Shown here piece by piece: positions 1,847 through 44,834 of a stretch of 54,567 bases of DNA. How positions within the stretch are numbered: position 1 is the first letter of the stretch; each line of letters begins with the position of its first letter. Source of the stretch: a virus (lineage: Duplodnaviria; Caudoviricetes). Under the pieces are notes generated by a model. That model did not search any database and had not been told where the DNA came from. It worked only from the letters and a program-made list of their open reading frames with translations. The stretch covers positions 1-54,567 of IMG/VR virus record IMGVR_UViG_3300045141_000365. The stretch is one strand, 5' to 3'. The position numbers and the translations under genes were made by a program.

Positions 1847-2146
1847 ATGGATGCACCGAGTTATTCAGATTCCGCCTCGCCATCAATGGCGCAGGACACC
1901 GGGGACGCCGACCCCAGTGAGGATCAGGAACACGAAACCTCAGCCCTACTGCCCAAGTCGATCCTGGCGGGCAAGGACTTCAAGGTGGGAGAGGAAGTGG
2001 TCCTCAAGATCGATGCCATCCACGATGATGAAATCGAGGTGTCGTACGCAACCGGCAAATCCAAGGAACCCGACGCTGACGAGTCCGCGATGGACACCGC
2101 CAAGGGTGGTCTTGACTCCTACGCAAAAACACCCGAACAGATGTAA
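1847..2146 (+). CDS. Acidic hypothetical protein (head module)
   Basis: D/E-rich 99-aa ORF, TAATG-coupled to the next gene. Confidence 0.7.
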   Translation: MDAPSYSDSASPSMAQDTGDADPSEDQEHETSALLPKSILAGKDFKVGEEVVLKIDAIHDDEIEVSYATGKSKEPDADESAMDTAKGGLDSYAKTPEQM

Positions 2147-2547
2147 TGGCTATGAGTGTTGCCTGTGATTCAACCAGCTTGCTGAATAATGCGAAATGTA
2201 TTTTTGGCTGTGTGCCTCCAGGAATGGCCAAAGCGATTCAAATTGCTTTGCTCTGTAATATTGTAAATGGGACCGTTATGACTGACTGCTCTGCACAAAA
2301 CTTAGTAACCCAAGCCGCTTGCTTCCTGCCTTGCATAGCTGCTGGAGCAGCGGACTCCATAATTATTTACTTACTTTGCCAAATCGCCAGTGGCTCCAGT
2401 GGTGGTGGTGGTGGGAGTGGGAGTGTGCTTTGCGGTACGGTAGATCCTACTACTGGACCAACTGGTTCGTGCGGAATTTATTATCGCAGCGACACCGGAG
2501 GATTCTGGTACTGGAATGGATCAGCATGGATTCAATTTATTGTTTAA
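2146..2547 (+). CDS. Cys-rich putative virion/decoration protein
   Basis: Two Cys-patterned repeats, a Gly linker, and C-terminal IYYRSDTGGFWYWNGSAW typical of phage fibre/decoration domains. Confidence 0.6.
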   Translation: MAMSVACDSTSLLNNAKCIFGCVPPGMAKAIQIALLCNIVNGTVMTDCSAQNLVTQAACFLPCIAAGAADSIIIYLLCQIASGSSGGGGGSGSVLCGTVDPTTGPTGSCGIYYRSDTGGFWYWNGSAWIQFIV

Positions 2548-2991: not shown

Positions 2992-3067
2992 CATTGCTTT
3001 CTCAATGTTTTGTCAGTGGCGGGATTCGGACTGCAATCCGTTCCCGCTGCGATTCTCCGCATTATGA
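2992..3067. promoter_or_regulatory. Conserved structured leader of HNH gene, copy 2
   Basis: Similar to 1741-1815; minus-strand CATAAT -10-like box overlaps the ATG at 3064. Confidence 0.55.
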
Positions 3068-4290
3068 GAACAAAAAACAACATCCTTTTCCTCGTTGCCA
3101 GCCTGTTCATTGGCGCTCTGCTGGCATTTCTGTTTATGGCGGCTGCTCCTCCCGCTCCGGTCTATCGCAATGCTTGGACCACTAACGCTGGCGTGGGGCC
3201 CGTGCAGGGGGCCAGCAATCTTCAGGTCACAAACGCCAACGACGTGATCTGGAATTTCTTTAGTGGTAGCACCAGCACAGTGGCCAGAATTGCTGATGTT
3301 AATGGAGCCACCAACACAGTCGTTACTAATTCACTGGAGCGCGGTTGGTTTGGGGACGGTTCCGATGGTCAGGCAATATTTGACGGCACGTCCACTGTGC
3401 TCGGCATGGCCCCAACCGCCAGCACCTACGTAATGACTAACAATCTATTCCTTTCCACTGCTGTTATCTCCAATGGTGCCACTTTGGTTACCACCGGATT
3501 CGTGGTGTGGTGCAGTGGAATATTAACCAATAATGGAACGATCCAGAACAATGGATCCCCAGGTGTAGCTGGTGCTTCGGCCACTACCGGGGGTGCTGCT
3601 GGTGCGGCCATTGCTCCCAAGGAATTAGGAGGTGGCCCTGCTGGAAGAACAGGTGGGACTGGCAATAATGGTGCAGGGAGCACGGGTGGCGCTCCTTCAG
3701 CAGCACAAGATGGTGCTGCTGGGGGCATTGGAGGAATAGGTGGATTCGGTGGATCGGCAGCAGGTGGAGCGGGAGGAACAGCTTCTGCGGTTCCTGCTTC
3801 TTTAAATAAGCGGCCAATAAGGTTTTTAACCCCAAGACTTATGGTGCAACTTTCGGGTGGTGGAGTCTTACAGCCACAAATTGTCCTTGGCGCTCAAAAT
3901 TCCGGCGGTCCCGGAGGTGGCGGCGCTGGGACTGGAGCCGCTCCAGGGGCTGGTGGTGGTGGGGCTGGTGGAGGAGCAGGAGCGCTTGCGATTTACGCCT
4001 TCGGTATCACAAATGTTGGAACCATTTCAACCACCGGAGGAAGAGGTGGTGACGGAGGAAGCGCTTCCAATGCCGGCGCTGCTGGTGGCGGAGGTGGTGG
4101 CGGAGGTGGTGGCGGATTGACTTATCTGGTATACGGATCACTTGCCAACTCGGGCACCATTGGTGCTGCTGGAGGTGCAGGTGGAAATGGAGGTTCAGGC
4201 AACGGCGCTGGAAATCCTGGCACAAATGGAAGCCCTGGTAACAATGGATTGGTGATAAAGTACAATTTAGCTACTCACAACTTTGAATGA
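3064..4290 (+). CDS. Gly-rich fibre-like protein with N-terminal signal peptide
   Basis: Likely start MRTKNNILFLV at 3064; hydrophobic h-region; FGDGSDG motif and long Gly/Ala runs as in phage Gly-rich tail proteins. Confidence 0.65.
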   Translation: MRTKNNILFLVASLFIGALLAFLFMAAAPPAPVYRNAWTTNAGVGPVQGASNLQVTNANDVIWNFFSGSTSTVARIADVNGATNTVVTNSLERGWFGDGSDGQAIFDGTSTVLGMAPTASTYVMTNNLFLSTAVISNGATLVTTGFVVWCSGILTNNGTIQNNGSPGVAGASATTGGAAGAAIAPKELGGGPAGRTGGTGNNGAGSTGGAPSAAQDGAAGGIGGIGGFGGSAAGGAGGTASAVPASLNKRPIRFLTPRLMVQLSGGGVLQPQIVLGAQNSGGPGGGGAGTGAAPGAGGGGAGGGAGALAIYAFGITNVGTISTTGGRGGDGGSASNAGAAGGGGGGGGGGGLTYLVYGSLANSGTIGAAGGAGGNGGSGNGAGNPGTNGSPGNNGLVIKYNLATHNFE

Positions 4291-5117
4291 AGAAATTCCT
4301 TCCTGCTATATGTGGCGCTTTTCTTGCAATGTTCGTGATGTGGCTGGTGTTGGGCGCGGCAGCCCCAGCTCCGCTTTATCGCAACCAGTGGACCACTAAC
4401 GTCCCAGGCCAGCCCGTCATTGGGAGCTTCATCTACAGTAATTCCGTAGCAGGCGCGGAGACCAATTTCGTTATTGCCAATTCCCAAGGGTTCCTGGAGT
4501 TGAACGGTGGAGGGAGGCAGCTCTGGAAGCTTTATGGCTGGTTCGGCACGGATAAGGCATTCGATTGGAATGGTAGCCAGTCCAAGCTGATGACCAATGG
4601 TGGGGCAGTGCTGTCCTTGAGTGATCCGACCCAAGTTGGCTTGCTCGTTACCGGCGCAGCAGCGCAAGCGGGAGACCTATTTAACGGCAACAATTCCGCA
4701 GGTGGAACCGTGTTCGCTGTCCATCCCGCTGGCACTATTTACTCTTCGGTGCTCTCTTCCAACCTGGCCACCTACACTGACAGCAATACCAACTTGGCCA
4801 GCGCCTCAGTGGCTGCAATCACGTACGCCGCAAACACGAACACGGTTAATTTTGGCGCATCCACCATGCCGTACTTTACTACCGTGATCACCAACGACAC
4901 GGTGTTTACGAATCGGCTTCAGTCCGCTGGCAAATCAGTAGCCATAAGGCTTACCGGCAATATCACCAACAGTAATTTAAGCTTTCCGGCTGGCTGGATC
5001 TTTTTGGGTGGGGGCGCTCCCACGAGCATCGCTTCCAACAAAGTGGCAGTACTTTCGCTCACGGCTTTCGGCACAGACCCAACCAATATTACAGCGGTCT
5101 ATTCCGTTCAGCCATGA
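4287..5117 (+). CDS. Fibre-like protein with signal peptide
   Basis: MKKFLPAICGAFLAM... signal; C-terminal LSFPAGWIFLGGGAPTSIASNKVAVLSL resembles phage fibre C-terminal domains; ATGA-coupled. Confidence 0.6.
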   Translation: MKKFLPAICGAFLAMFVMWLVLGAAAPAPLYRNQWTTNVPGQPVIGSFIYSNSVAGAETNFVIANSQGFLELNGGGRQLWKLYGWFGTDKAFDWNGSQSKLMTNGGAVLSLSDPTQVGLLVTGAAAQAGDLFNGNNSAGGTVFAVHPAGTIYSSVLSSNLATYTDSNTNLASASVAAITYAANTNTVNFGASTMPYFTTVITNDTVFTNRLQSAGKSVAIRLTGNITNSNLSFPAGWIFLGGGAPTSIASNKVAVLSLTAFGTDPTNITAVYSVQP

Positions 5118-5920
5118 CAAGATCCCTGCTCCTCATCCTTCTGTTCTGCCTGGGCGCCCACGCTCAGGACTTGAGCTTCCTGAATCTCCCGCTCCTGGCG
5201 CAATCCCAGGCGGCGCAATTGCCCCTCACGGGGATGCTCGCATGGTTCAAGGCTGATTCCTTTCCCACCACTACCACGAACCTGACCCCAGTGGGAAACA
5301 CCACGAATAATACGCAATGGATCGATTCAGCGCCGGGCCACATTTACACGCTGATGCAGCGGACAGCGGCCGATCGGCCCCTCTACAATCTGACGAACAA
5401 TTTGCAGAACAACCTGTTTCAGGCCATGCCCTGCATTTTCTTCCAGGGCAACTGGCTCTCCAATACCACCACGCCCATTACGCTCTCCACCAACTTCACG
5501 ATCTTCGTGGTGCTGAAGCAGAATGCCACTGTGGACAATTGCATTTTGGGATCCAGCACGGCAAACCGACAGCTTCGGGCCAATCGTCTCAATGCCAATA
5601 CATGGAGCTTCTTTGACGGTGCCTCCGAAGTGGTCAGTTCGGCCTACACCTCCAGCCAAACCACGAACCGGCTTTCGACGTGCCGTCGAACAAGTGGCAA
5701 CGTGGAGTTTTTCGACGGCATCATAAACAAGGGGCCGAACACTGCTTCGGCCGCAACCACTGTGTTCGATCAGGTCTGCGCCTCCTCGGGTGGGAGCGGG
5801 GTAGCCAACTACAATGGAACAGTCCAGGAGATCGTCATTTACACCAATGCCCTGAATGATGTAACGATTGGCTCATTGTATACCAATTACTTCAAGCCCA
5901 GATGGACCATTGCACCTTAA
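5114..5920 (+). CDS. LamG/concanavalin-like lectin domain protein with signal peptide (putative receptor binding)
   Basis: AHA|Q cleavage site; LAWFKAD, FTIFVV, YNGTVQEIVIYTNAL motifs. Confidence 0.7.
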   Translation: MTRSLLLILLFCLGAHAQDLSFLNLPLLAQSQAAQLPLTGMLAWFKADSFPTTTTNLTPVGNTTNNTQWIDSAPGHIYTLMQRTAADRPLYNLTNNLQNNLFQAMPCIFFQGNWLSNTTTPITLSTNFTIFVVLKQNATVDNCILGSSTANRQLRANRLNANTWSFFDGASEVVSSAYTSSQTTNRLSTCRRTSGNVEFFDGIINKGPNTASAATTVFDQVCASSGGSGVANYNGTVQEIVIYTNALNDVTIGSLYTNYFKPRWTIAP

Positions 5921-5927
5921 ACGAGCT

Positions 5928-6143
5928 ATGAGCGACATTGTTCTGGTGGCCATCATCGCCACTGTGCCAGGAGTGCTGACTGCTGCTGTAGGGTATTGCG
6001 CGGTCCACAAAAAGACCAATGACCTGAAGGTCCATATTAATTCCCGCATGGATCAGTTGCTGGCAGTCTCGAATGCCGCCAAATTCGCGGAAGGTAAAAT
6101 CGAAGGCCGATCGGAAGCCACCATCAAAGCGCCGGTATCATGA
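5928..6143 (+). CDS. Small membrane protein, holin-like
   Basis: One N-terminal TM helix; lysis-cassette position. Confidence 0.5.
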   Translation: MSDIVLVAIIATVPGVLTAAVGYCAVHKKTNDLKVHINSRMDQLLAVSNAAKFAEGKIEGRSEATIKAPVS

Positions 6144-6146
6144 ACT

Positions 6147-6431
6147 ATGGCAAACGGAACACCACCCAAAAAAGGGTTGCGGTTTTCACCAGAAATAAAC
6201 GCGGGGCACATCCTGACGGCCGTTATGTTGCTGTTCGGAATTGTTGGTGGTTATGCCGCCTTTCACACCCGGCTTTCGGTGCTTGAATTCCGACAGGCGC
6301 AGACAGATCAGGTCGTCAATGAACTGAAGAACAATAATGTTAAACTGGCCCAATCCATCGAAGAATTGAAGACAATCAGCATCAGGCTGACTGTGTTTGT
6401 GGAGGAAAGCCGAAAATCGAAAAGGGAATGA
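6147..6431 (+). CDS. TM plus coiled-coil protein (holin- or spanin-like)
   Basis: Single TM followed by heptad-rich tail. Confidence 0.5.
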   Translation: MANGTPPKKGLRFSPEINAGHILTAVMLLFGIVGGYAAFHTRLSVLEFRQAQTDQVVNELKNNNVKLAQSIEELKTISIRLTVFVEESRKSKRE

Positions 6432-6432
6432 T

Positions 6433-6819
6433 ATGCCGGACATGGATTACTTCTCCAAGGAGTTGACCCAGATCTTTCACTCGTCCCCGCCGATCTTCCT
6501 GTGTGTGGCCATCATCGCTCTCGGCTACGCGATTAAACTGATCCCGTCCATTCCGAACCGGATCATCCCGATGGTGACCTATAGCGTGGCCATCGTGGCA
6601 TACCCGATCATTTCTGTGCCCAACCCTGGGAGCCTGCCGCAGAATTACTCAACAGTGGCCGGCATCGTGCGGGACATGCTGGGTGGGGTTATTATTGCGT
6701 CCATTGCCTGGATTGCGCATCTTGTGGTCCTGAAAAAGCTGATCGACAAATACATGCCGGTAAACGATCGGGGAGATACCAAGTTTATGACCAAGCCACC
6801 AGAGGAGCCAAAACCATGA
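6433..6819 (+). CDS. Putative holin (3 TM)
   Basis: Three hydrophobic segments, charged C-terminus; start MPDMDY. Confidence 0.6.
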   Translation: MPDMDYFSKELTQIFHSSPPIFLCVAIIALGYAIKLIPSIPNRIIPMVTYSVAIVAYPIISVPNPGSLPQNYSTVAGIVRDMLGGVIIASIAWIAHLVVLKKLIDKYMPVNDRGDTKFMTKPPEEPKP

Positions 6820-7148
6820 AGCGCCTGCTCTTTTTATTCCCACTGCTGCTCTGGGGATGCGCCCTGAACAACGGGGTTCCAGCCAACAAGATCAACATCG
6901 TCACACCTCAAGGGTCGTACAACATCTTCACCCCAAAGAACGTCACCATTGACGCATTTGTGGCCACGGTGGAAACCAACGGCATCGTCAAGGTGAGCTT
7001 CACCAAGTGGCAAAGCGCCAACGATCCACTGGTGATCGACAAGGCGGCTGCGGGCCAGGTGTCGATCATAAACGCCTGGAATAATCTGGTCAGTCAGGCT
7101 GTGTTTTCGGCTGCCAATGGCGCCGTGCAAGGAGCGGTAAAGCCATGA
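6816..7148 (+). CDS. Lipoprotein (possible o-spanin)
   Basis: MKRLLFLFPLLLWG|C lipobox. Confidence 0.6.
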   Translation: MKRLLFLFPLLLWGCALNNGVPANKINIVTPQGSYNIFTPKNVTIDAFVATVETNGIVKVSFTKWQSANDPLVIDKAAAGQVSIINAWNNLVSQAVFSAANGAVQGAVKP

Positions 7149-7900
7149 GAAGCATTCAACGTTACGGCTGGCGCCCTGATTTGGGTGATGTCCGGGATCT
7201 CATATTTCGGCCTACATTAGATGCCGCACAGCTTCCGCCCAAGGTGGATCTCCGTGCTTTATGTCCACCGGTCTATGACCAATGGCAATTAGGTTCCTGC
7301 ACTGGCAATGCTTCCGAAGCTCTCTTCCGCTTCCAGCACAAGAAACAGACTGGCACTGACTTTGAAGGTTCGCGCCTGTTCGCTTATTACGGGGGGCGGG
7401 AAGCTGAAGGCAGTACGGATACCGATTCCGGGGCTATGATCCGGGATGTGATCAAAGCCATACGCAAGGAAGGCATTTGTTCAGAGCAATGTTGGCCGTA
7501 CGATATTGCGCGGTTCGCTGATCGTGCTCCACAATCCTGTTACGACGAAGCCCTAAAGCACCAATCGCTCAAGTATCATCGCATCAATGGATTGCACAGC
7601 ATGAAGTCATGCTTGGCTCAAGGCTATCCATTTGTGTTTGGATTTTCAGTGTACGAAAGCTTTGAAAGCCCCGAGGTCGCTCGCACCGGGATGATGCCAA
7701 TGCCAGATCCAAGTGAAGCACTGCTTGGTGGTCATGCTGTGATGGCTGTGGGTTATGACGATACGCTCAAGATGATGATAGTCCGTAACTCATGGTCGGA
7801 TTCTTGGGGGGTCGGAGGATATTTTTGGATGCCACAGGATTATGTTTCAAATCCTGCACTGTCAGACGATGCATGGACAATTACGCTGGAAGAAATTTAA
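7145..7900 (+). CDS. Papain-family (C1A) cysteine protease
   Basis: QWQLGSCTGNA (Gln/Cys), GHAV (His), RNSWSDSWG (Asn). Confidence 0.92.
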   Translation: MRSIQRYGWRPDLGDVRDLIFRPTLDAAQLPPKVDLRALCPPVYDQWQLGSCTGNASEALFRFQHKKQTGTDFEGSRLFAYYGGREAEGSTDTDSGAMIRDVIKAIRKEGICSEQCWPYDIARFADRAPQSCYDEALKHQSLKYHRINGLHSMKSCLAQGYPFVFGFSVYESFESPEVARTGMMPMPDPSEALLGGHAVMAVGYDDTLKMMIVRNSWSDSWGVGGYFWMPQDYVSNPALSDDAWTITLEEI

Positions 7901-7901
7901 C

Positions 7902-8432
7902 TTAAATATGCCTCCAAGTGTGTCTCGCCAAGATGGCCTTAATATTGGCTTCTGAAACTGAAAATGCGGTAGCAATTTCTTTTCTTGGCACTTTCCCCCT
8001 GAGTGATCGAATTGAGATCACCTCCTTTTCGGTCAACTTTGCCAATGCATGAGATTCTCCGCGTGGTCTGCATTCTGGCCGTCGCCTTGAACTATGCTCG
8101 CCCCCTCTTTGGATTTGCTCCGGATGCGTTGCGCTTCCGTGGCGTCCCTTTTTCACAGCATCTAAAATATTGTCGGAATTTGTTCCAGCGAACAAATGGT
8201 TGGGGTTAACACAGGAAGGATTGTCGCAATGGTGGCACACGTAAAGCCCAGATGGGATCACGCCATAATGCATTTCATAGCTGATACGATGGGCTGATAC
8301 AGACTTTCCTCTCCCCATTATAATCATTCCGTAACCAGACTTCGTTTTGGCTCCGATCCACAACCAGCAGGAATCGGTCTTTTTGACCTTATCCCAAAAC
8401 CTAGTATGTGCTGGAGTGACTTTTTTAGGCAT
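7902..8432 (-). CDS. HNH endonuclease (HNH_3 type) with C-terminal HTH
   Basis: CWLWIG, AHRISY, VCHHCDNPSCVNPNHL; own promoter-like TTGGTA-17-TAAGAT at 8470-8442. Confidence 0.9.
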   Translation of the reverse strand: MPKKVTPAHTRFWDKVKKTDSCWLWIGAKTKSGYGMIIMGRGKSVSAHRISYEMHYGVIPSGLYVCHHCDNPSCVNPNHLFAGTNSDNILDAVKKGRHGSATHPEQIQRGGEHSSRRRPECRPRGESHALAKLTEKEVISIRSLRGKVPRKEIATAFSVSEANIKAILARHTWRHI

Positions 8433-8750: not shown

Positions 8751-9113
8751 GTGCAAGTCGTCGCTCAGATATACACGGTCAGCACCGTCTCCATTCCAGA
8801 GACGGTGATCTACACTGTCCCGGAGGATGGCCTTTACGAGCTGTCAGCGGTCCTGGAGTCCAGGACCCCTTACCCATCGATGGTGAGCGGGGACAGCGTG
8901 GTCTCGCTGCTGTTCCGGGCGGAGGGCTACATCGGCCGCAAGAAGTTCTCCCTGGTGCCGTCTCTGCATGTCGATCAGCCGCATGATGCTGCCGGGTTTA
9001 TAGTTCTGGCACTCAAGGGAGGGACCACCGTCACCTTCTCGGCCACGTTGTTCGCCTCCGGCGCCGAAGCCACCTTTGCTGTCATCGCCGCCCTGAAGCA
9101 GTTGACTCCTTAA
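8751..9113 (+). CDS. Hypothetical beta-rich protein
   Basis: GTG start abutting the previous stop codon. Confidence 0.5.
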   Translation: MQVVAQIYTVSTVSIPETVIYTVPEDGLYELSAVLESRTPYPSMVSGDSVVSLLFRAEGYIGRKKFSLVPSLHVDQPHDAAGFIVLALKGGTTVTFSATLFASGAEATFAVIAALKQLTP

Positions 9114-10918
9114 GTCAGCACCCAATTCTCCCGGATCTTTGCGGCCCGGCGTTTCAGGTCGTCTTTCCAGCGGTCATCACGTTTGGGTGATTGCGTGGAA
9201 AGTTTGGAGATCGAGAACCCCAGGCGTCTGGCGCCTTCACAGGCAGTGGCCAGCCAATCCATCAAGTCAGGGCTGCGGTTGGTGCGCTTCCTGGTTTCCT
9301 CCTTTGGCTCGATTTCAATTTTGTCCCCACGAACCATGTACCACTCCCGGGAGCAGGCGTCATCAATCACTTCCATGGGCATGTTTCGCATTTGCCATGA
9401 CTCAATGATGTAGCGCACAGAGAACCAGATTTCCGTGACGAACTTGCTGAAATGTTCATCAGCTCTTTTGGGACGCATCTGGCCCGAGTCCTTGTCCCGA
9501 ATCATGAGATCAGCCACAGGCCGACCCGTAGGTGATCCCCCAAACTCCACAGGGTTGACCATTGGGCTCCACAGCCTGGCGAATGCAGTGCCCAAAGATC
9601 CCCGGCCGGTGGAGTCGTAAAACACATTTTCCGGAGGAATGCCCTGGCGTTCACAGTCCTCCTTGACGAACTGGGCGATTTGATCCTCCGGAACTTTGTC
9701 GCTGCGTGGGGAGATCGGGATGATCACTGGCTGGTTGACGTTCAGGATTGTTTCCTTTCCATCCACGCCCCGGCCAAATTCCACTACTCCACCCACGCAC
9801 CGATCCCCACCAATGCTACCGTAGGCGGCATCCACGGCGTAAACTTTGGTCTGCCTGGTATCGAACCAGACAGCTTTTTCCATGGCGTCAAATTGCTTGC
9901 ATAGTGTGAGGGTGATGACCCTCCTGGCGTAGAGCCCTGTTTTCCTGATCCCAAGAACCTGGGAGTAGTATTGCAGCGAATTCCTGCCGTAAAAGTTCTC
10001 CACCTTTTGGATCTCCTTTTGGTGGATCATGTACGGGTACTTTGGCTTTACGTCCTGGGGGAAATCGAAGTTCGGGCTGTCTGTGCCCACCAGATTAATG
10101 GAAGTGCCCCCGAATTTGTTTTCCCACGTGGTGGTCTTCTCTGGCTCGTTGATTGAATTCCACCCGTCCTTGGGCTCAGAGATCTTGTCCAGGGGATCAC
10201 CTTCCCCTAATGGGTTTCCCACAAAGACACCCTTGAAGTCTCCACTGTTCAGATTCGCCAAGCTGTCCAAAAAGGCCGGGCGCATGAATTGGCACTCATC
10301 ACTGAGCAGCCTCCGGCGTTTTTGCTTCAGTCCCACGTACTTCCCCAGCCCCACAAATTGGCCATTGGAGCTGATGCAGGGAATGCAAACAATGCCCTTG
10401 CGCATGTCCCGGACATCCTCCTCTTGCAAGTTGTCAGTGCAAATGGCGTGCTTGGAATCGATCAGGTGACCTCCCAGGAAATCCCATCTAGCCTTGGCTC
10501 GCTGGTAAAGTCCCTTGAGATCACCCCAGATCCTGTACTCCAGCCCGCGCATGTCCGTGGAGGAAATCAGGATCAATGTGGTGTGCGGAAAGCACCAGTA
10601 ATCCATCAGGCCAAACTTGGCCATGCAGTGAGTCTTCCCGCTATCCTTCGGGCCAAGGATCGGAGTGATCGGGCTTTCGAGGATTGTCTTCAGGCATAAT
10701 TGCCACCAGCGATGGTCGTCCTCTTCCGGCCAAAGCAGCTTGGCCAGCTCGGAATAATGGAAGTAAAGCCCCTCCCCAGCCATCTGCCCGTTGGCCTTTT
10801 TCCACTGGCCCCCTTTGCGAATAATGTCCATGTGAACATGGATGGGTGCTACCAGAGGAGAGAGCCAGACACCGTACCGATTCACCTTCTGATTGGGGTC
10901 TTGCTGTTCTTCCGGCAT
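9110..10918 (-). CDS. terL: Terminase large subunit
   Basis: Walker A GPKDSGKT, Walker B LLSDE, coupling motif VGNP, RNase H-like VDAAYG...YDSTG...RSPDLMD. Confidence 0.88.
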   Translation of the reverse strand: MPEEQQDPNQKVNRYGVWLSPLVAPIHVHMDIIRKGGQWKKANGQMAGEGLYFHYSELAKLLWPEEDDHRWWQLCLKTILESPITPILGPKDSGKTHCMAKFGLMDYWCFPHTTLILISSTDMRGLEYRIWGDLKGLYQRAKARWDFLGGHLIDSKHAICTDNLQEEDVRDMRKGIVCIPCISSNGQFVGLGKYVGLKQKRRRLLSDECQFMRPAFLDSLANLNSGDFKGVFVGNPLGEGDPLDKISEPKDGWNSINEPEKTTTWENKFGGTSINLVGTDSPNFDFPQDVKPKYPYMIHQKEIQKVENFYGRNSLQYYSQVLGIRKTGLYARRVITLTLCKQFDAMEKAVWFDTRQTKVYAVDAAYGSIGGDRCVGGVVEFGRGVDGKETILNVNQPVIIPISPRSDKVPEDQIAQFVKEDCERQGIPPENVFYDSTGRGSLGTAFARLWSPMVNPVEFGGSPTGRPVADLMIRDKDSGQMRPKRADEHFSKFVTEIWFSVRYIIESWQMRNMPMEVIDDACSREWYMVRGDKIEIEPKEETRKRTNRSPDLMDWLATACEGARRLGFSISKLSTQSPKRDDRWKDDLKRRAAKIRENWVLT

Positions 10919-10953
10919 GGATGCATTGTGCGGGACAGCATGGCCAATAGCAA
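10901..10953. promoter_or_regulatory. Overlapping divergent sigma70-like promoters
   Basis: Plus strand: TTGCTG-17-CATTGT; minus strand: TTGCTA-17-CACAAT, 6 nt before the terL ATG. Confidence 0.45.
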
Positions 10954-12724
10954 TTCAGGCCCCATATGGGAAGTGGACGGTCAGACTGAATGGTCTGCCG
11001 GGGTCAACAGCGGCCAAACGCCCACCATTGCCTCAGACAACTTCCCCCATGGTCTTAAGCGCAATGCTTTGGCCTTTTTAGGCAACGGCACAGTGCGGGG
11101 AGGGCAGATCTCCCCACGGAATGGCTTTCAGCCTCTGGTTCAAGGTGTCAATTGGTCCGGCCTGTTTCAAGGCGCGTACATGTATGAGCCGGATGGTGGT
11201 GACCCCTATATCATGATGGGAGTCGGGGGCCGCACGTATCAGGTCAGAGTGGACCTGGACAATTCAGTCAAGGATGTCACCACGGCGGCCACGTTGCGAA
11301 GCTTGAGCCAGCCACAATGGTGGATGAAGCAGGGCGAACAGTTCCTGGTGATTCAGGATAATTTCGCTGAGCCCAATGTCTGGGATGGCAGCAAGCTTCA
11401 GAAAATCTCAGCGATGATCAACACGCTCGGGGTTCCAACGCTGCCCCGTGGAACCGCCATGGATTATTTCATGGGCCGTTTCTGGGTTTGCACTGGCACC
11501 CGGGAATACATAGGTGGGGACATCGTGCGTGGTCCCAGCGGGACAGCAGCCTACGGGTTCCGGGACTCGATTCTTTTCCAAAGCGAGAACACCTACCTGG
11601 CCGGTGGTGGCGCCTTTGTGGTGCCTACCAATGCCGGGATCATTCGCGCCATAGCGCATACCGCTGAACTGGACACTGCCTTGGGACAAGGAAGGCTTTA
11701 CGTTTTTACCCGCAATTCCATTTACGCCCTCAACGTTCCTGTGGATCGAACCACATGGGCTGCTGCCACGATCAACAAGCTCCCCCTGCAAACTGTTGCC
11801 CAGATAAAGTTCGGCGCGGTTGGGGACAGGAGCGTAGTTGCTGTCAATGGTGACTTATTCTACCAAACACTGGAACCAGGAATACGGTCCCTGACATTGG
11901 CTGTGCGTTACTTCACGCAATGGGGCAACGTGGGCATCAGCCGCAATGAGAACCGTGTGCTTCAGCTTAATGACCGGTCCCTATTGCGCCTTTCGTCTGG
12001 CATTGAATTCAACAATCGCCTGTTGCAAACCTGCCTGCCATTCCAGACTGCCGTAGGGGTGGCGCATCGGGGGATTATTCCACTCGACTTCGATATTATC
12101 AGCAGCCTGGACGAGAAGCTTCCGCCAGCCTGGGAAGGCATGATGGAGGGACTCCAGTTCCTGCAATTGGTGGAAGGGGATTTTGGCGGCCGGCAACGGG
12201 CATTTGCCATTGTGCTCGGGGAAGTCTCCGGACAGATCGAGGTGTGGGAAATAACCAGCACTGAGATCGGGGACAATGGGGACAATCGGATCACCTATTG
12301 GTTTGAGACCCCCGCTTACACTTGGGGTGATATGTTCCAATTGAAGAAGCTAGTCAGCGCCGAACTTTGGGCCGATCAGATCTTTGGCACTGTGGACTTC
12401 ACGGTGGAGTACCGCGTGGATCAGTCCCCTTGCTGGATCCTGTGGCACAAGTGGCAGGTCTGTGCGGCCCGGGATTGTCGCGAAGATCCTGACGTGCCCT
12501 GTGGTTACCCCATCCAGCCTTTCTGCCCTCAGAATCGTTCTTCAATGGCACTGCCAGTGCCCCCATCTCAATGTGATCCGAACAATATCCGGCCATCAGA
12601 CATCGGGTATCAGTTTCAATGCCGAATCACGATCAAAGGCACAGCGACGGTGAGAGGTTTTCTCATCTACGCTGAAAAACGTGTGAGGGAGCCATATGAA
12701 GGTATAGTCTGCGCGAAAGTATGA
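10940..12724 (+). CDS. Tail nozzle / DNA stabilisation protein (tail tubular B-like)
   Basis: Likely start MANSNSG at 10940 (the longer ORF overlaps terL); beta-propeller-like repeats; size and position. Confidence 0.55.
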   Translation: MANSNSGPIWEVDGQTEWSAGVNSGQTPTIASDNFPHGLKRNALAFLGNGTVRGGQISPRNGFQPLVQGVNWSGLFQGAYMYEPDGGDPYIMMGVGGRTYQVRVDLDNSVKDVTTAATLRSLSQPQWWMKQGEQFLVIQDNFAEPNVWDGSKLQKISAMINTLGVPTLPRGTAMDYFMGRFWVCTGTREYIGGDIVRGPSGTAAYGFRDSILFQSENTYLAGGGAFVVPTNAGIIRAIAHTAELDTALGQGRLYVFTRNSIYALNVPVDRTTWAAATINKLPLQTVAQIKFGAVGDRSVVAVNGDLFYQTLEPGIRSLTLAVRYFTQWGNVGISRNENRVLQLNDRSLLRLSSGIEFNNRLLQTCLPFQTAVGVAHRGIIPLDFDIISSLDEKLPPAWEGMMEGLQFLQLVEGDFGGRQRAFAIVLGEVSGQIEVWEITSTEIGDNGDNRITYWFETPAYTWGDMFQLKKLVSAELWADQIFGTVDFTVEYRVDQSPCWILWHKWQVCAARDCREDPDVPCGYPIQPFCPQNRSSMALPVPPSQCDPNNIRPSDIGYQFQCRITIKGTATVRGFLIYAEKRVREPYEGIVCAKV

Positions 12725-14331
12725 ACAACCCATGTGATCGAGCATTGCTGTGTGATTGTTCCCCGACACCCTTCCGGAACTTCAGTTCGGAAGCCCCGGA
12801 CCCTGCTGAATTCTTTGCCATTTCGTTTTTCGCCGGCAGCCCCCCGCTGAACTCACCCCCATCCTTCTTCGGCTTTGGCGGCTCGCAGCTTGGCACCTGT
12901 GAGTCAGTGGTGTCCCAAGTGGACGCACAGGATTGCGCCACGCGGGGAGCGGAAAGCAAGGTCTGGGATACGTGGGTCGATGGAAGCCCCCCTGTTCCGG
13001 TTCGTCAATTTGGCAACACTGAGCAGGTCTGTGAGATCCCGTGCCCCAACGGTGAGGATCCATTCATTTACACGCTGGCGGCCGGCACGGTGATTGCACT
13101 ATCCCAGGCCGAAGCTGACGAACTGGCGGCAAGCATCTGCCTGTTCCGGGCTAGACTGGCCCAGGTCTGCGTACCGGTGAACCCAATAACGCCACCCAGC
13201 ATTACGCTGGTGCCGGATTTGGTCTTCCTGACCAATCTGGCCACCAACACTCCGAATTTAGTGGGCCAGGTTTTGTCCGGCGCGGCGGGGCTGTTTAATG
13301 GCTCGGCCACGATCCTGCCAGCAGGGGCAGGATTCGGGGTGGCCAATGCTGCCAACGATCTTGGACGGGTGGCTGGAAACTTCTTTGTCGCATTCAATCA
13401 GGATGGCTTTTGGTACGATGGAGTGAACCGGGATCTTGGTCCCGGCACGAGCGGGACCGTGGATATGTTGGGCATGTCTACTGACGGGTTTTCGATCTAC
13501 AGGGACCAGGATGTTGGCATCACCAGCAAGCTCTACAACCCAACGCTTGCCACATTGACCAGTCTTGGGTTTTTGCCCGGTGGCTCCTTTACTATTCCGG
13601 GGGCCTTTGGGCTCGGTAATGCTCCCACTACGATTATCACCACTCCAAGGAGAGTCATCAACACACTCCACCAGATGGCCGTTAGTGCTGACGATGGGGT
13701 CAATTTCTGGGCCTGCCGATATACTGGCGGGGTTTTGGTGCAGATTTCCCCACTCTTTGCGGACCTCCCGCCTTTTGGAAACAATGGCAATGGCTCCGTA
13801 GCAATTGACCAAGCTGGTGCCGTGCTTGGGGTTTGGAGGCAAGCGGCCCCCGTTCGGAACAGGGCATTTATCAATATGGCTGGTGGTCGGGCCGCTTCGT
13901 TTGATCTTGGCGGGGTTGGGGCAGGGCAAGTCACGCCAGTGGCTTTAAGTGATCACAACCAAATTGCCTGTGGCACCTGTGATGATGGGGGTGGTTTTGG
14001 AAACGACGCAGCATGGCGTTGGAATATCATGGAAGGCTTTAAGTTGATTCCACGGCTGACTGCCGGTGTTTCCATGATCACTGGAGATTGCAACAGCTTT
14101 GGAGACGTGGTGGGATACGATAACAACCTTGTCGCATGGATTTGCAGGAATGGCGTGACGTACAAAATTATCGACATCCTCAACGCCTGGGCTACTGATC
14201 CAGCCTGGACTTCGATCAGGACAGCCGAGCTGTGCAATGACCAGCGTCAGGTGGCCGGGTTTGGTATTCACTCCGGGGTGCAAAAGTGCTATCTCTTAAC
14301 TCTGCCGGCTGGTTCTGAACTTGGGCCATAA
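12721..14331 (+). CDS. Tail protein with Cys-rich N-terminus and HAF-repeat-like propeller
   Basis: Repeats ANAANDLGRVAG / AIDQAGAVLG / ALSDHNQIACG / DCNSFGDVVG / LCNDQRQVAG. Confidence 0.55.
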   Translation: MNNPCDRALLCDCSPTPFRNFSSEAPDPAEFFAISFFAGSPPLNSPPSFFGFGGSQLGTCESVVSQVDAQDCATRGAESKVWDTWVDGSPPVPVRQFGNTEQVCEIPCPNGEDPFIYTLAAGTVIALSQAEADELAASICLFRARLAQVCVPVNPITPPSITLVPDLVFLTNLATNTPNLVGQVLSGAAGLFNGSATILPAGAGFGVANAANDLGRVAGNFFVAFNQDGFWYDGVNRDLGPGTSGTVDMLGMSTDGFSIYRDQDVGITSKLYNPTLATLTSLGFLPGGSFTIPGAFGLGNAPTTIITTPRRVINTLHQMAVSADDGVNFWACRYTGGVLVQISPLFADLPPFGNNGNGSVAIDQAGAVLGVWRQAAPVRNRAFINMAGGRAASFDLGGVGAGQVTPVALSDHNQIACGTCDDGGGFGNDAAWRWNIMEGFKLIPRLTAGVSMITGDCNSFGDVVGYDNNLVAWICRNGVTYKIIDILNAWATDPAWTSIRTAELCNDQRQVAGFGIHSGVQKCYLLTLPAGSELGP

Positions 14332-14336
14332 ATGCT

Positions 14337-15368
14337 ATGAAACTTTCTGTTCACGATGTTCAAATGTCCTCGCTGCCCAAGGCAGTGGGGCTCTGCGCTT
14401 CTGACCTGCCATCCATCCTGTCCGGGCTCAACGAAGTGATCCAGCGGTTGCTGGTGGCCCAGGAGATGGGTGACACCGGTTGGTACGGCACCAATCGTGA
14501 GGTGGTGTTTTCGGTCAATCCGCTCAACCCGTATGTGACCACTCCCCGGGAAGTGGCTCGCCTTAGCGACATCGATATTTGTGGCCAACCGATCAAGGTT
14601 CAGAATCAGTACTTTGAATACCTGCTGTTCGGGGATGGCCATCGTCCGCGTTGCCGCTCCTCCATCTGTCAGGCCACAGCCGCCTACGATCGGGGCACGG
14701 TCGTTACATGGGTCGATATTCCGCTGGGGAATACTGTGCGAGTCTACCCCACCAATGCGGCTGACAAAAACAAGCGGGTTTTCATCCAGGGGTCAGACAG
14801 TAACGGCAATCCGATCTACACGATCGACGATGGCGTTCAGGTCAATGGCTTCTTCATCTCGCTCGACACTCCGTTTGCTGATTCGCTTTACACGATGGCA
14901 GCAGGCGGGATCACCGGCATTGAGAAGGACACCACACTGGGGCCGGTCCTGATTTATGGCGTGGACCCTGTAACGTCAGTTCAAACCTTGCTGGTCACAC
15001 TGGCTCCCAATGAAAACGCTCCGGCTTTCCGTCGTTACTTTCTGGACAGGCTGCCCCGGCAATGCACTGACTGCCCTCCGCCATTGGCTCCCATCCAAAT
15101 GACGGCCATGGCTCAGTTGGAATTCGTGCCCCTGACCTGTGACACTGACATCCTGCTGATTGGCAATCTCCCAGCCATCAAGTCGGAATGGATGTCTCTT
15201 CGCTTTGAGGGGATGGATGAACCATCAGCCCAACAGCAAGCCGTCAAGCATCACAAGGATGCCATTCGCTATCTCCAGGGAGAGATCGTAAAATATACGG
15301 GAAAACAGCTTCCTGCCCTCGGATTTAAACCGTTTGGCAAGCATCCTGTATCATTGAATATGCGATGA
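14337..15368 (+). CDS. Head-tail adaptor (tail tubular A-like)
   Basis: N-terminal LSGLNEVIQRLL helix, helical C-terminus, position. Confidence 0.5.
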   Translation: MKLSVHDVQMSSLPKAVGLCASDLPSILSGLNEVIQRLLVAQEMGDTGWYGTNREVVFSVNPLNPYVTTPREVARLSDIDICGQPIKVQNQYFEYLLFGDGHRPRCRSSICQATAAYDRGTVVTWVDIPLGNTVRVYPTNAADKNKRVFIQGSDSNGNPIYTIDDGVQVNGFFISLDTPFADSLYTMAAGGITGIEKDTTLGPVLIYGVDPVTSVQTLLVTLAPNENAPAFRRYFLDRLPRQCTDCPPPLAPIQMTAMAQLEFVPLTCDTDILLIGNLPAIKSEWMSLRFEGMDEPSAQQQAVKHHKDAIRYLQGEIVKYTGKQLPALGFKPFGKHPVSLNMR

Positions 15369-16078
15369 CTATGACAGCCAAACAGATTTACATGAAGGCT
15401 TATTACGCCAAGCACGGTGTCAGGCTTCGCGAGATGGAGCGACAACGAAGGCTTGTGGATGTCGAACTCTCGCGATTGAAGGATCGTCAAAACTATCAAC
15501 GGAACAGGCTTCAAAAATTGAATTCAAAGAAGCTTTACCACATTAATAATCGACAGAAACGAAACGCTTATAGTCGCTCTTATTGGGCTTCAAATCGAAA
15601 CAAGTTAACCGCGAATTGCCGGAAGCGGTATTTGGCAAACCGAAAACAGGCTATTAAAAACTCCACGGATTACATTCGCGCAAACCCTGAAAAGCACAAA
15701 CTTTACAGGAATAGATGGCGAAAGCGAAACCCAGAGAAATGGCAGGCTGGCGAAGCCCGCAGGAGAGCGCTTGAGAAAGGTGTTGCTACCGATAAAAAAT
15801 CTGTCCAGTGGTTTTTTACCGCTATACGCAACCAGCATTCAGTCACCTGCTCGTATTGCCAAGCAAGCATTGATGCTCTGAAGGCCCACGTGGATCACAT
15901 CGTTCCAATTTCATGCGGTGGAGACGATCTGCCTGATAATTTTGCGGTTTCGTGTCCTAGTTGCAATCTCAGCAAGCACGACCATTTGTTGCACGAATGG
16001 AAGCGATGTCCGGAACGTATACGGCGGCTCTGGTTGGAATATTTCAGCAAACACGCAGTCGCTCTAAATATGAGGTAA
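15365..16078 (+). CDS. HNH endonuclease with basic helical N-terminus
   Basis: CSYC...HVDHIVPISCGG...NFAVSCPSCNLSK. Confidence 0.9.
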   Translation: MTMTAKQIYMKAYYAKHGVRLREMERQRRLVDVELSRLKDRQNYQRNRLQKLNSKKLYHINNRQKRNAYSRSYWASNRNKLTANCRKRYLANRKQAIKNSTDYIRANPEKHKLYRNRWRKRNPEKWQAGEARRRALEKGVATDKKSVQWFFTAIRNQHSVTCSYCQASIDALKAHVDHIVPISCGGDDLPDNFAVSCPSCNLSKHDHLLHEWKRCPERIRRLWLEYFSKHAVALNMR

Positions 16079-22146: not shown

Positions 22147-23019
22147 TTATACTCCGCACATTCCTTCGCATTCATTGTTGAACAGATTTAGTGTTGGATC
22201 ATTGCTGCCAAATTGAGCTTCGGACAATGAGACCAAACTTGAGTGTAAATATGGCACTTTCTGTGATCCGCCGTCGCTGCATACCTTTTGGAACGCCAAT
22301 TCGTAATCCACAGCCCGCTTGAAGTCATTTGGCGATTTGAGCTTCATTTCCGACCACAGGGAGTCGTTGTGATACGGACAAAAGACGCAGGCACTCTTGG
22401 GTGGTTCAGGGTAGCCATGCTGGCGCATCCACTTAAGACACGATTGACGCGACATGCCGTGCTCAACAAGCGGGAATCTGTGGGCAATCCATGGTTCTCG
22501 ACTAGGTTTCATGCGGCTGGCCTCGTCGGTTGATATTCCAATCCATTGAATCACCAATGGCGGCGGCTTTTGTCCACTATCCGCAAGCTGTAAAATGACC
22601 TTCTTTGGATACTGTTTCCTCCACTGCTTCAGGCGGTCACCAGCAATCCGCCGGGCAGCTTTTACAAGTTCAAGCACCTTGAAGTCATAGGTGCATTTCC
22701 GGTGCAGCATCCCACGACCCGTGTCAGTTTTGACAAATGCCGGAATATAGGTTGAATAATAGGGTTTGCCGGTTGTCTGGTTTACCCTTTTTCGTAGCGA
22801 TTCAGCCATCAAATCGCCCTTACTAACGCGATGCACTGGGTATGGCAGTTGTTTTTCCAGCCAATCCAACCAAACGTAAACCTTTTCAGGCTCGGCTTTC
22901 GTGTCGGCAAAAACGCCGCATGTCGGGATCGGAGTTATCTCTCCATGAGATGCCATCAAGGCAAGCGTGGAGGATTGGACACCAGCACCGAGGCTCAAAA
23001 TATGTATTGGTTCGATCAT
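22147..23019 (-). CDS. PAPS reductase-like (adenine nucleotide alpha-hydrolase) protein
   Basis: PP-loop SLGAGVQS, FADT, IGISTDE, SACVFCPYH, terminal CEGMCGV. Confidence 0.8.
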   Translation of the reverse strand: MIEPIHILSLGAGVQSSTLALMASHGEITPIPTCGVFADTKAEPEKVYVWLDWLEKQLPYPVHRVSKGDLMAESLRKRVNQTTGKPYYSTYIPAFVKTDTGRGMLHRKCTYDFKVLELVKAARRIAGDRLKQWRKQYPKKVILQLADSGQKPPPLVIQWIGISTDEASRMKPSREPWIAHRFPLVEHGMSRQSCLKWMRQHGYPEPPKSACVFCPYHNDSLWSEMKLKSPNDFKRAVDYELAFQKVCSDGGSQKVPYLHSSLVSLSEAQFGSNDPTLNLFNNECEGMCGV

Positions 23020-37578: not shown

Positions 37579-37983
37579 TTGAAGCCGTCTGACTTTGAAC
37601 TCATCGCCCGAAAGCTCCCCATCAGTGAAGCCACCAGAAGGCGCAATCAGGCTGGTCCTGTGGGGCCACCTGCCACCGACGCGCAATCGCCTCAAAGGAG
37701 CGCACTGGAGCGTGTTCACCAGGGAGAAAAGGAGAGTGGCGATGGCAATGTCCAAAGCGATCAACCTTGTCGTTATAGAGTCGTCATTACGGTCTACTCA
37801 GTCAGGCCAGCCGATTGGGACGGATGGCACTGCAAGGAGATTCTCGATTGCGTCTGCAAAGCTGGTTTCATGGATGACGACGATTGGCGTATTTGCCCAA
37901 CAGGGACAGTCACCTCCCGTAAGGTTTGCACGAAAGAAGAGGAAAGGACTGTCGTAGAGGTGATTCCGATATGGGAACCTTGA
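37579..37983 (+). CDS. RusA-like Holliday junction resolvase (catalytic half)
   Basis: DWDG..CKEILD.V.KAGFMDDDD matches the RusA D-D..K..D...D pattern. Confidence 0.6.
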   Translation: MKPSDFELIARKLPISEATRRRNQAGPVGPPATDAQSPQRSALERVHQGEKESGDGNVQSDQPCRYRVVITVYSVRPADWDGWHCKEILDCVCKAGFMDDDDWRICPTGTVTSRKVCTKEEERTVVEVIPIWEP

Positions 37984-38639
37984 TTAATTTAACTGGGAAA
38001 AGATTCGGCAGATGGGAGGTGCTGGGGCGCGGCACATTTGTTGGTGCGATTCTTTGGAATTGCAAATGTGATTGTGGAGTTGAGGCGCTTGTTCCTGGAC
38101 CTTCATTGAGAGATGGGGAAAGCAGATCGTGCGGGTGCCTTCAGCGAGAGCTAACCTCCAAGAGAAGCAAACTTCAAAAACCTCGGCCGGTATCGCGCAG
38201 AGCCTCGGAGTTTTGGAGCAAGGTGTCCAAGAAGTACGTTGGCGGAAATTGCTGGATATGGACGGGGCTTAAAAACAACATGGGCTACGGTCGGTTTCAT
38301 TACAATACCAAGGCAATACTGGCTCATCGCTTTTCGTGGTTTCTCCATACTGGCAAAATGCCATCTAAATTCGTGCTTCATAAATGTGATACGCCGCTTT
38401 GTGTGAACCCGTGTCATTTATTTGAAGGCACAGCCATGGACAACACTCATGACAAAATGGCTAAGGGGAGACAGCCTAAAACTTTACCCGGGGCCTGCAA
38501 GACCAATGACAACATGGTGCGCTTGCTTCGCAGGCTGTGGGTGCCTTATAAAGTGTCCATGGCAACACTTGCTCAACAGTTCAACCTCAATGTCTCAACA
38601 GTGGAAAGCGCTATCTATAAGCGAAAGGGAGTGATTTAA
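37971..38639 (+). CDS. HNH endonuclease
   Basis: LTGKRFGRW, CKCDCG, SCGC, CWIWTG, HKCDTPLCVNPCHL. Confidence 0.9.
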   Translation: MGTLINLTGKRFGRWEVLGRGTFVGAILWNCKCDCGVEALVPGPSLRDGESRSCGCLQRELTSKRSKLQKPRPVSRRASEFWSKVSKKYVGGNCWIWTGLKNNMGYGRFHYNTKAILAHRFSWFLHTGKMPSKFVLHKCDTPLCVNPCHLFEGTAMDNTHDKMAKGRQPKTLPGACKTNDNMVRLLRRLWVPYKVSMATLAQQFNLNVSTVESAIYKRKGVI

Positions 38640-38640
38640 A

Positions 38641-39333
38641 GTGAGAATGAAATCTCGCACTGATTTTCCGCCCGGCCAGTGGTGCTACCTCCAGCCACAA
38701 ACTGGATGGAATGCTATTCCAGGATCATTTGATGCCGTGGTGCGTCAAGTCATCGGGCACCGGGCCGGAAATCGCGCCATTACCAAACAATACAATTTGC
38801 CCACTGATTACGAAGCAGTTGGAAATGAAGTAGACGAGTTTAACGCCTTGCGATGTGTAGCCGCTGGCTGGAACAACTTTGTGATCGAGGCTCCCCCACC
38901 GTCTTTTCGAGCGCCCACACCGTTCAAGCGCCTGTCAAACGCTGTTGTGGGAGGTAGCCGCAGAATTGTGGCAGGAGTCAAGGCAATCGCGCTTTGGCTG
39001 GGAGACGGACTGAAACCGGTGTCACAGGAGCTGGCAGAGCGGAGGGCTGCTGTTTGCGCCGTGTGCCCAGCCAATGTAGATCCGAACTTCGTAGAAAAAC
39101 TTTCAGCAGTGGGTGCGGCGGAAGTCAAAACCATGATGGCCATCAAGCATGATCTTACCTTGAAAACGCCTCACGATGACAAACTTTACAGTTGCCGTGC
39201 GTGCGGGTGCTGGAACCCATTGTCTGTGTGGTGCAAGCTCGACCATATCACTGCTACGATGTCACCAGAGGTTCGATCCAAGTTGGACCCAAGTTGCTGG
39301 AAAACCGCTGAGCTTAGACCGCAAGACGAATGA
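38641..39333 (+). CDS. Cys-rich Zn-binding hypothetical protein
   Basis: RAAVCAVCPAN, CRACGC, SCW. Confidence 0.65.
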   Translation: MRMKSRTDFPPGQWCYLQPQTGWNAIPGSFDAVVRQVIGHRAGNRAITKQYNLPTDYEAVGNEVDEFNALRCVAAGWNNFVIEAPPPSFRAPTPFKRLSNAVVGGSRRIVAGVKAIALWLGDGLKPVSQELAERRAAVCAVCPANVDPNFVEKLSAVGAAEVKTMMAIKHDLTLKTPHDDKLYSCRACGCWNPLSVWCKLDHITATMSPEVRSKLDPSCWKTAELRPQDE

Positions 39334-44508: not shown

Positions 44509-44834
44509 GCTGCCACCGCCGTTGGCGCTTTAGGCCATGCTTTCTTCGCACGCAACCAGGCTTCCGCGTGATCCCGGGGTGTGGCGCCCAGCAGGGTGCC
44601 TCCCAGCTTGGTCAGGAAGCTTCGGTAGGCATCCAGTTCGTGCTGGCTGAAGCCCTGCCGCGCTTCATACGTGGCGTTTAAGTCCTTGTGGAATTTGGGC
44701 ACAATCAGCGCCATGGAGCCGCTCATGACGGTGCCATGCTTGTCCGGGGGCCGGCTCCAAATATTATTCGGGGTCACTTTGTAACCAAGCGCCAAAGCGA
44801 TGCGCTTGTCGATTTCAGGACCAGTCATTTCCAT
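44505..44834 (-). CDS. Hypothetical protein
   Basis: EIDKRIALALGY...PKFHKDLNA...ATPRDHAEAWL. Confidence 0.6.
   Translation of the reverse strand: MEMTGPEIDKRIALALGYKVTPNNIWSRPPDKHGTVMSGSMALIVPKFHKDLNATYEARQGFSQHELDAYRSFLTKLGGTLLGATPRDHAEAWLRAKKAWPKAPTAVAA

Follow-up and report, generated by a model that had tools for sequence, protein, structure and literature searches.

Three consecutive genes of a tailed phage, here called A, B and C, encode fibre- or lectin-type proteins that each open with a Sec-type leader, and A and B carry the same conserved N-terminal element directly behind it. They lie between the capsid gene and the lysis cassette of IMG/VR virus record IMGVR_UViG_3300045141_000365 (Duplodnaviria; Caudoviricetes), which we analyzed over its whole stretch of 54,567 bp, hereafter the window; it is a complete virus record with direct terminal repeats (exact, 127 bp). 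That A, B and C are exported, or at least inserted into the membrane with their bodies outside the cytoplasm, has good support in their sequences. We tentatively favor the reading that they are late proteins, exported by Sec, which dock onto phage particles at lysis. The three genes and their leaders are arranged as follows.

3064-4290, plus strand: gene A, 408 residues; leader, conserved N-terminal module, GDGSDG-type region and a C-terminal part with 25% glycine
3064-3147, plus strand: A leader, residues 1-28; MRTKNN and a 22-residue hydrophobic stretch with an AAA end before PP
4287-5117, plus strand: gene B, 276 residues; leader, shared element, predicted intertwined trimeric shaft and beta-sandwich tip
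4287-4361, plus strand: B leader, residues 1-25; MKK, hydrophobic stretch, GAAA end
5114-5920, plus strand: gene C, 268 residues; putatively cleavable leader (residues 1-17, AHA|Q), LxLxNxPLLAQ stretch and predicted lectin-like jelly roll

Assessed by hand rules, all three proteins open with a charged tip followed by a hydrophobic stretch, in agreement with a first-pass annotation that had read signal peptides at the start of three consecutive genes. From the ATG at 3064, A reads MRTKNN, 22 hydrophobic residues and then PPAPVYRNAWTTN; B, from the ATG at 4287, reads MKK, a 23-residue hydrophobic stretch with a GAAA end and then PAPLYRNQWTTN. C starts at the ATG at 5114 with MTR and LLLILLFCLG, and its N-terminus, MTRSLLLILLFCLGAHA|QD, is a textbook Sec/signal peptidase I leader. 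Possible small-x-small cut sites are AHA|Q in C, VLG|A, LGA|A and GAA|A in B, and AAA|P alone in A; A and B themselves lack Gln after the leader. Since Pro at +1 is unfavorable for signal peptidase I, A may stay membrane-anchored. A, B and C (268-408 residues) show neither a lipobox nor an outer-membrane anchor.

The start codons of B and C overlap the preceding stops as ATGA, which places the hydrophobic stretches within the proteins and rules out true starts downstream of them, the outcome that the first-pass annotation had named as fatal to its proposal. In a crude set of 85 open reading frames (ORFs), six have an early hydrophobic segment (starting within the first 40 residues), namely A, B, C and three ORFs of the lysis cassette. 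With N-terminal hydrophobic segments limited to these proteins, a membrane-containing virion was rejected.

Among diverged homologues of A, B and C, the leaders are, on the aligned sequences, conserved in kind and not in sequence. In the close homologues of A (P0019, P0020, P0022 and P0024), the K/R tip is retained together with a hydrophobic stretch of 19-22 residues. The ten homologues of B, which extend down to 41% identity and share the invariant columns A25, P29, N33, T37 and N38, all open with a hydrophobic stretch or part of one (shortened in P0004, P0010 and P0011), and three of them read AxA|QVPP, as MNRILLLLFLTAFSAFA|QVPPVLRNKFSTN or similar, that is, a short classical leader followed by Gln. 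Five of the six homologues of C keep the leader, the Gln and then the conserved LxLxNxPLLAQ stretch; the sixth, P0018, is leaderless and, in a record consisting of protein sequence only, begins no more than two residues from the predicted cut site.

A Gln behind the cut site follows the Q-rule, which a published survey describes as Bacteroidetes-specific: on average, 71% of the signal peptidase I substrates in that group obey it, and in other tested groups the share is mostly below 20%, though not without exceptions (PMC5837995). In the window, GGAG or GAGG stands upstream of 8 of 58 genes, against a background of 9%, and Shine-Dalgarno-like motifs are not enriched. The lysis cassette, with its lipoprotein and membrane proteins, suggests a two-membrane host. 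We found no tRNA genes in the window and no close cellular relatives, and the sugar dehydratase gene is uninformative on the host because its best relatives (45-49% identical) come from several phyla. Judged from these genomic features, the host is probably a member of the Bacteroidota or of another Q-rule lineage without Shine-Dalgarno sites.

The element common to A and B occupies the following positions.

3145-3336, plus strand: conserved N-terminal module of A, residues 28-91; includes PAPVYRNAWTTN at 3151-3186
4359-4427, plus strand: shared element in B, residues 25-47; includes PAPLYRNQWTTN at 4365-4400

The first-pass annotation had pointed to a motif right after the signal of two otherwise unrelated proteins. 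The motif is real, the YRNxWTTN codon pattern occurring exactly twice in the genome, once in A and once in B, and the likeness of the two proteins is indeed limited to the N-terminus: residues 15-50 of A and 12-47 of B share 47% identity over 36 residues (BLASTP, E 5e-8 in a single comparison). It is also kept in the homologues of both proteins.

A phmmer search of 1.84 billion representative proteins, with residues 1-100 of A as the query (E up to 0.001), returned 45 matches. In 44 of them (43 recognized by pattern and P0054 by eye), (A/Q)PxPxxRNxW(S/T)TN...NLSVTN...W.F...TVARLxD stands directly behind a hydrophobic stretch of 11-22 residues that is preceded by Lys or Arg; the remaining match, P0070, looks unrelated. 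The carriers are 109-1554 residues long and have differing bodies, and of the 42 module matches parsed, 19 have Gln after the leader. A module profile built without the leader matched A (E 3e-25), B at residues 25-47 only (E 5e-7) and all ten B homologues (E 1e-7 to 4e-4), and no further ORF of the window. P0022 and P0024 have a similar stretch, NQFTTNFPGQPV, some 90 residues from their start, and this internal position indicates that the element is the start of a domain and not only a terminal tag. On these alignments, what A and B have in common is not a free-standing docking peptide: it makes up the first ~23 residues of a conserved domain of ~65 residues.

Searches in other collections returned little. 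The YRNxWTTN DNA pattern had three matches in IMG/VR, all out of frame and hence due to chance; module alignment A4 found nothing there and module alignment A3 a single locus, L014. One metagenome scan gave only two short loci, and neither the B alignment nor P0025 nor module alignment A4 turned up relatives in 185,579 species genomes.

Behind the N-terminal parts, A and B have the following bodies.

3346-4287, plus strand: A body; WFGDGSDG...TNNGTI region, then glycine-rich repeats
4809-5114, plus strand: B C-terminal domain, residues 175-276

The WFGDGSDG...TNNGTI region in the middle of A is common to 14 longer or leaderless proteins (P0025-P0038), 13 of which are without an N-terminal hydrophobic stretch, with a different one in P0037; glycine makes up 25% of the C-terminal part of A. 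Neither A, B and C nor most of the structural genes have a Pfam or PHROG match. The fibre and receptor-binding label of the first-pass annotation is supported for B and C, on account of a tip domain found on fibres, a predicted trimer and a lectin-like fold.

The last 100 residues of B recur at the ends of leaderless proteins in the related loci L007 and L006 (148 residues in the latter) and of a leader-bearing protein in L008 (367 residues). The L007 carrier is collagen-like (9587-10501; 34% identity with the B tip, E 4e-15). The best solved match of the tip is the capsid spike of phage Pa223 (9ny6_C; Z 7.5, root-mean-square deviation 3.0 over 91 residues), followed by tailspike domains, all with Z below 8 and hence middling. 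Matches in BFVD are tail-fibre and collagen-repeat proteins with low template modelling (TM) scores.

Three copies of B residues 26-276 are predicted to form an intertwined homotrimer, with an interaction prediction score from aligned errors (ipSAE) of 0.89 against 0.00 for the best control, a predicted local distance difference test score (pLDDT) of at least 77 for the partners and a contact agreement of at least 82% between runs. Of proteins solved as one-chain pairs, 20 of 30 attained this mark, compared with 1 of 23 single-chain structures; these counts are only a rough guide to a trimer because the calibration was done with two copies. The confident contacts begin at residue 69, so the shared N-terminal element lies outside the confident interface.

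The monomer model of C (pLDDT 48.5) gave consistent matches to lectin-type jelly rolls, including the lectin domains of trans-sialidases (Foldseek, E 3e-6) and pentraxins. Pfam Laminin_G_3 stays insignificant, reaching no better than E 0.42, in three of eight members. Homology of C to the proteins at L006 9095-10000 or L008 10288-11232 is not supported (BLASTP E 5.5, hhalign probability 7.9%), and only genome position and a short N-terminal likeness remain between them.

At least six leader-bearing proteins follow the capsid gene in L008, most with Gln next, and L006 has the same gene order with the leaders absent. Two leaderless post-capsid proteins of L006 (9095-10000 and 10399-11502) have the common N-terminus MPSA(N/S)SLSLNNVAFL. 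This pair is a leaderless parallel for two fibres with one N-terminal peptide.

In L014, L015 and L016, which carry the A-type module, a protein ending in ...WYW.G..W is encoded just upstream, as in the window. This protein is rich in Cys, contains repeats of the unit C..SLL..A.CF.C...LLC and has the motif YY..TG.FWYW.G..W at its C-terminus; the window copy is 35% identical to L016 368-760 (E 1e-21), and the gene lies just upstream of a leader-bearing fibre gene in all four loci listed here.

Window 2146-2547: Cys-rich protein
L016 145-760: Cys-rich protein
L014 6160-7191: Cys-rich protein
L015 2-835: Cys-rich protein

L014 also encodes a 571-residue capsid-like protein that resembles crAss/SU10-type capsid clusters (atlas score 0.98) and has no BLASTP similarity to the capsid-like protein of the window. 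The atlas look-up of the capsid-like fragment of the window gave scores below 0.9, which provide a lead only.

In 8 of the 45 matches (P0044, P0051, P0056, P0060, P0063, P0065, P0069 and P0075), a coiled-coil protein of 70-190 residues is fused in frame before the hydrophobic segment, so that the leader becomes an internal hydrophobic segment. L016 encodes the coiled-coil protein as a separate upstream gene (762-1298) with an ATGA overlap with the fibre gene; no copy of this partner was found in the window. We cannot explain the fusions with confidence; at the level of sequence, they argue for a functional connection of the fibre's leader end with a protein in the cytoplasm.

The sequences show conserved Sec-type leaders, a module common to A and B, and bodies of fibre type; actual export, cleavage and docking onto the particle are what we infer. 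The Sec-type leader on each protein would carry the body across the inner membrane to its periplasmic side. Signal peptidase I would cleave C and the majority of proteins in the three families, frequently with Gln directly behind the cut; C itself would be cut at AHA|Q and B within GAAA, and A would be cut poorly or remain tethered by its uncut leader. A and B would expose the same element, (A/Q)-P-x-P-x-x-R-N-x-W-T-T-N-x-x-G-x-P-V-x-G, and the N-terminal module would act as a common anchoring part that holds different bodies at one common site. The proteins would meet finished particles when the adjacent downstream lysis cassette breaks the envelope, and docking would occur then. Of the route proposed by the first-pass annotation, export of fibre-type proteins is well supported; docking in the periplasm of an intact cell is unlikely because capsids are cytoplasmic, and docking at lysis is the workable form.

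Textbook tailed-phage assembly is wholly cytoplasmic. An extended form of our proposal, which we regard as doubtful, is a two-compartment particle in tailed phages of Bacteroidota-like hosts: heads and tails would be made in the cytoplasm, fibres and lectins would be exported by Sec and matured in the periplasm, and the two would be joined at lysis via the short N-terminal module, part of the family being linked across the inner membrane before lysis by the coiled-coil partner fused before the leader.

P22 gp9 and T7 gp17, a podovirus tailspike and fibre, respectively, are trimeric and combine a conserved N-terminal particle-binding part with variable distal parts, and tail fibres and spikes of model phages can join finished particles in vitro. 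Unlike the leader-bearing A, B and C, P22 gp9 and T7 gp17 are leaderless and are folded and assembled in the cytoplasm. Phages also encode proteins with a signal sequence that act on the envelope, such as T5 Llp, Cor and lambda Lom/Bor, whose genes lie beside host-recognition genes. These are small lipoproteins or outer-membrane proteins, whereas A, B and C are of fibre or lectin type and have no lipobox. In the literature, searched mostly through titles and abstracts, we found no description of Sec export of tailed-phage fibres.

A close likeness comes from cultured phages of Cellulophaga baltica, in which consecutive late genes of fibre or enzyme type with a Sec leader and Gln also stand directly upstream of the lysis cassette. 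In phage phi10:1 (KC821618), gp091-094 are annotated in GenBank as 'structural protein' on the basis of tandem mass spectrometry (MS/MS) proteomics; all four have a leader followed by Gln and are positioned just before the lysis genes. The pectate lyase gp095 likewise carries a leader with Gln behind it; next come membrane proteins and a glycosyl hydrolase. In phi46:3 (KC821622), gp079-083 are leader-bearing as well and the other structural proteins are leaderless; the first 22 residues of gp081 (744 residues) and gp082 (312 residues), comprising the leader and QT, are identical (L018 11514-14691). The likeness to the window thus extends to two different proteins with one N-terminus and to head and tail proteins that otherwise lack leaders. 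The Cellulophaga proteins differ in being without the PxPxxRNxWTTN module, and their association with the virion is that given in the record notes ('experimental MS/MS').

Several observations weigh against docking of A, B and C onto the particle. A has no canonical cut site, and the long hydrophobic stretches of A and B, each followed by Pro, suit uncleaved anchors equally well. The AlphaFold2 monomer models of B (pLDDT 50.5) and C (pLDDT 48.5, predicted TM score 0.51) are of low confidence. Nor do A and B offer a periplasm-specific rationale: mature A has one Cys and mature B none, and the D[ST][AILVMT] motif is absent from A and present once each in B and C, which is chance level; by these counts, paired cysteines and glycosylation-motif enrichment were ruled out as reasons for the export of A and B. 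The window encodes leaderless candidates for the real receptor binder, for example the 536-residue protein at 12721-14331. Finally, the Cellulophaga proteins have no detectable sequence similarity to A, B or C, and MS/MS of purified particles may pick up co-purifying envelope material.

As the main rival explanation, which we consider possible but less likely, A, B and C would be exported and never enter the particle, acting instead on the envelope of the infected cell. They could mask or bind the phage's own receptor against loss of progeny on debris, block superinfection or be displayed as adhesive fibres attached through the conserved N-terminal domain, roles with which leaders on lectin or fibre bodies are compatible, and leaderless tail-module proteins could be the true receptor binders. 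The MAT fibres of Bdellovibrio bacteriovorus provide a displayed counterpart: they are trimers resembling phage fibres, with a signal peptide, swappable tips and an invariant N-domain that is thought to anchor the fibre to a surface (Caulton et al. 2024, PMC10769870). The match of leader, invariant N-domain and variable tips is one of architecture as described in that text; MAT fibres are cell-encoded and stand on the cell's own surface, and their N-domain has ~130 residues against ~65 here. Genes with Q-rule leaders have also been reported in Porphyromonas gingivalis phages, where the authors read them as an adaptation to the host Sec system and propose modification of the host envelope (outer membrane); there, their function is given as unknown and they are not described as fibre-type (PMC10367356).

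An envelope role is harder to reconcile with the leader-bearing proteins of the cultured analogues, which are recorded as structural proteins detected by MS/MS, and with the tip domain of B, which related phages carry on ordinary leaderless fibres. The absence of a visible lipobox or outer-membrane anchor in A, B and C also speaks against it, as does the presence of at least three such genes in a row where relatives keep their fibres.

A further possibility, which we judge improbable, is that A and B are uncleaved type II membrane proteins, with the N-terminus inside and the body in the periplasm, tethered to the inner membrane until lysis and coupled in some relatives to the cytoplasmic coiled-coil partner. 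The length of the hydrophobic stretches (22 and 23 residues), the Pro-rich PPAP/PAP sequences behind them, the sole AAA|P site of A and the Arg or Lys on the N-side of the segment would fit such a topology, as would the coiled coil fused before the segment in 8 of 45 matches or encoded by a separate, ATGA-overlapping gene in L016. Against it, most family members have short leaders and AxA|Q sites typical of cleaved signals, B has usable cut sites and the window has no coiled-coil partner gene.

It is more improbable still that the hydrophobic N-termini are virion parts retained in the particle, such as elements that insert into membranes during infection, and not export signals. Hydrophobic membrane-active segments do occur in virion proteins of some other phages, and the fused coiled-coil forms resemble an attachment domain, a shaft and a distal part. 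Against this reading, the leaderless P0018 begins no more than two residues from the predicted cut site. In addition, the sequence varies freely in the families studied here, and what is kept is the n/h/c form with a small-x-small site and Gln at +1, the mark of a signal peptidase I substrate (PMC5837995).

An artefact of wrong start calls, with the hydrophobic stretches untranslated or in other frames, has a negligible likelihood: start calling does vary, as the shortened or missing leaders of P0004, P0010, P0011 and P0021 illustrate, but A/B and B/C are coupled by ATGA, no in-frame alternative start lies between the hydrophobic stretch and the conserved motif, and leaders are conserved at the protein level in dozens of diverged clusters.

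If host-recognition proteins pass through the Sec system in whole sets, fibre attachment would be a post-lysis step, signal-peptide filters in phage annotation and in the mining of receptor-binding proteins would discard the very targets sought, and host-range studies would require such fibres to be expressed in the periplasm. Direct tests of the export route are possible in the cultured Cellulophaga phages. The module provides a searchable handle, consisting of a leader and (A/Q)PxPxxRNxW(S/T)TN...TVARLxD with a Cys-rich upstream neighbor and sometimes a fused coiled-coil partner. The window adds the N-terminal module common to two fibres and spread over 44 clusters, the conserved Cys-rich neighbor, the fused coiled-coil forms and a case of putative export that is explained by neither cysteine pairing nor glycosylation motifs.

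The phage is a novel tailed phage and probably short-tailed. The structural half of the window is almost without Pfam or PHROG matches, and the gene order was read from size, order and weak homology, so the head and tail labels below are putative. In a collection of cultured phages, the portal-like protein, B and C had no match and A matched one metagenomic Caudoviricetes record; a sequence search of the PDB gave nothing usable for the portal-like, capsid-like and 1378-residue proteins. The capsid-like ORF spans the 127-bp repeat (frame checked arithmetically), so the record is cut inside this gene.

47555-49873: portal-like gene; 19% identity over the full length to a 782-residue protein of L006 (E 1e-10)
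Between the portal-like gene and the capsid-like ORF: putative scaffold-like genes
53879-54567 joined in frame to 128-1109: capsid-like ORF
After the capsid-like ORF and before the 2146-2547 gene: small acidic protein, in the probable order
2146-2547, plus strand: Cys-rich protein of 133 residues, ending in YYRSDTGGFWYWNGSAW; adjoins the leader-bearing fibre genes upstream, a conserved arrangement
5868-7900, plus strand: lysis cassette; two small membrane proteins, a holin-like protein, a lipoprotein (LLWGC) and a papain-family peptidase
9110-10918, minus strand: probable large terminase, 602 residues; Walker A (GPKDSGKT) and Walker B (LLSDECQ) recognized by eye
10.9-22 kb: putative tail-like module

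Matches within the lysis cassette are Peptidase_C1 (Pfam, E 2e-14), a holin (E 0.006) and phrog_1129 (E 8.5e-4); the enzyme at 7145-7900 is a papain-family cysteine peptidase (the Peptidase_C1 match), not a muramidase or amidase. The 602-residue protein at 9110-10918 is without a Pfam or PHROG match, and its gene overlaps a long TTG-started ORF (10700-12724), the true start of which is probably further downstream. In the tail-like module, the leaderless 536-residue protein has 16 cysteines and a neighboring protein has 10.

Seven HNH/homing-endonuclease-like genes are dispersed over the genome, several of them wedged between structural genes.

1151-1738, 2537-2989 and 7902-8432, all minus strand: HNH/homing-endonuclease-like, recognized by eye only
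15365-16078, 37926-38639, 39330-40073 and 46935-47558, all plus strand: HNH/homing-endonuclease-like, with PHROG or Pfam support

A sugar-modification cluster on the minus strand (41970-46859 and 22147-23019) encodes a GDP-mannose 4,6-dehydratase (E 4e-101) and an FkbM-type methyltransferase, and a gene resembling phosphoadenosine phosphosulfate (PAPS) reductase (phrog_424) was noted with it.

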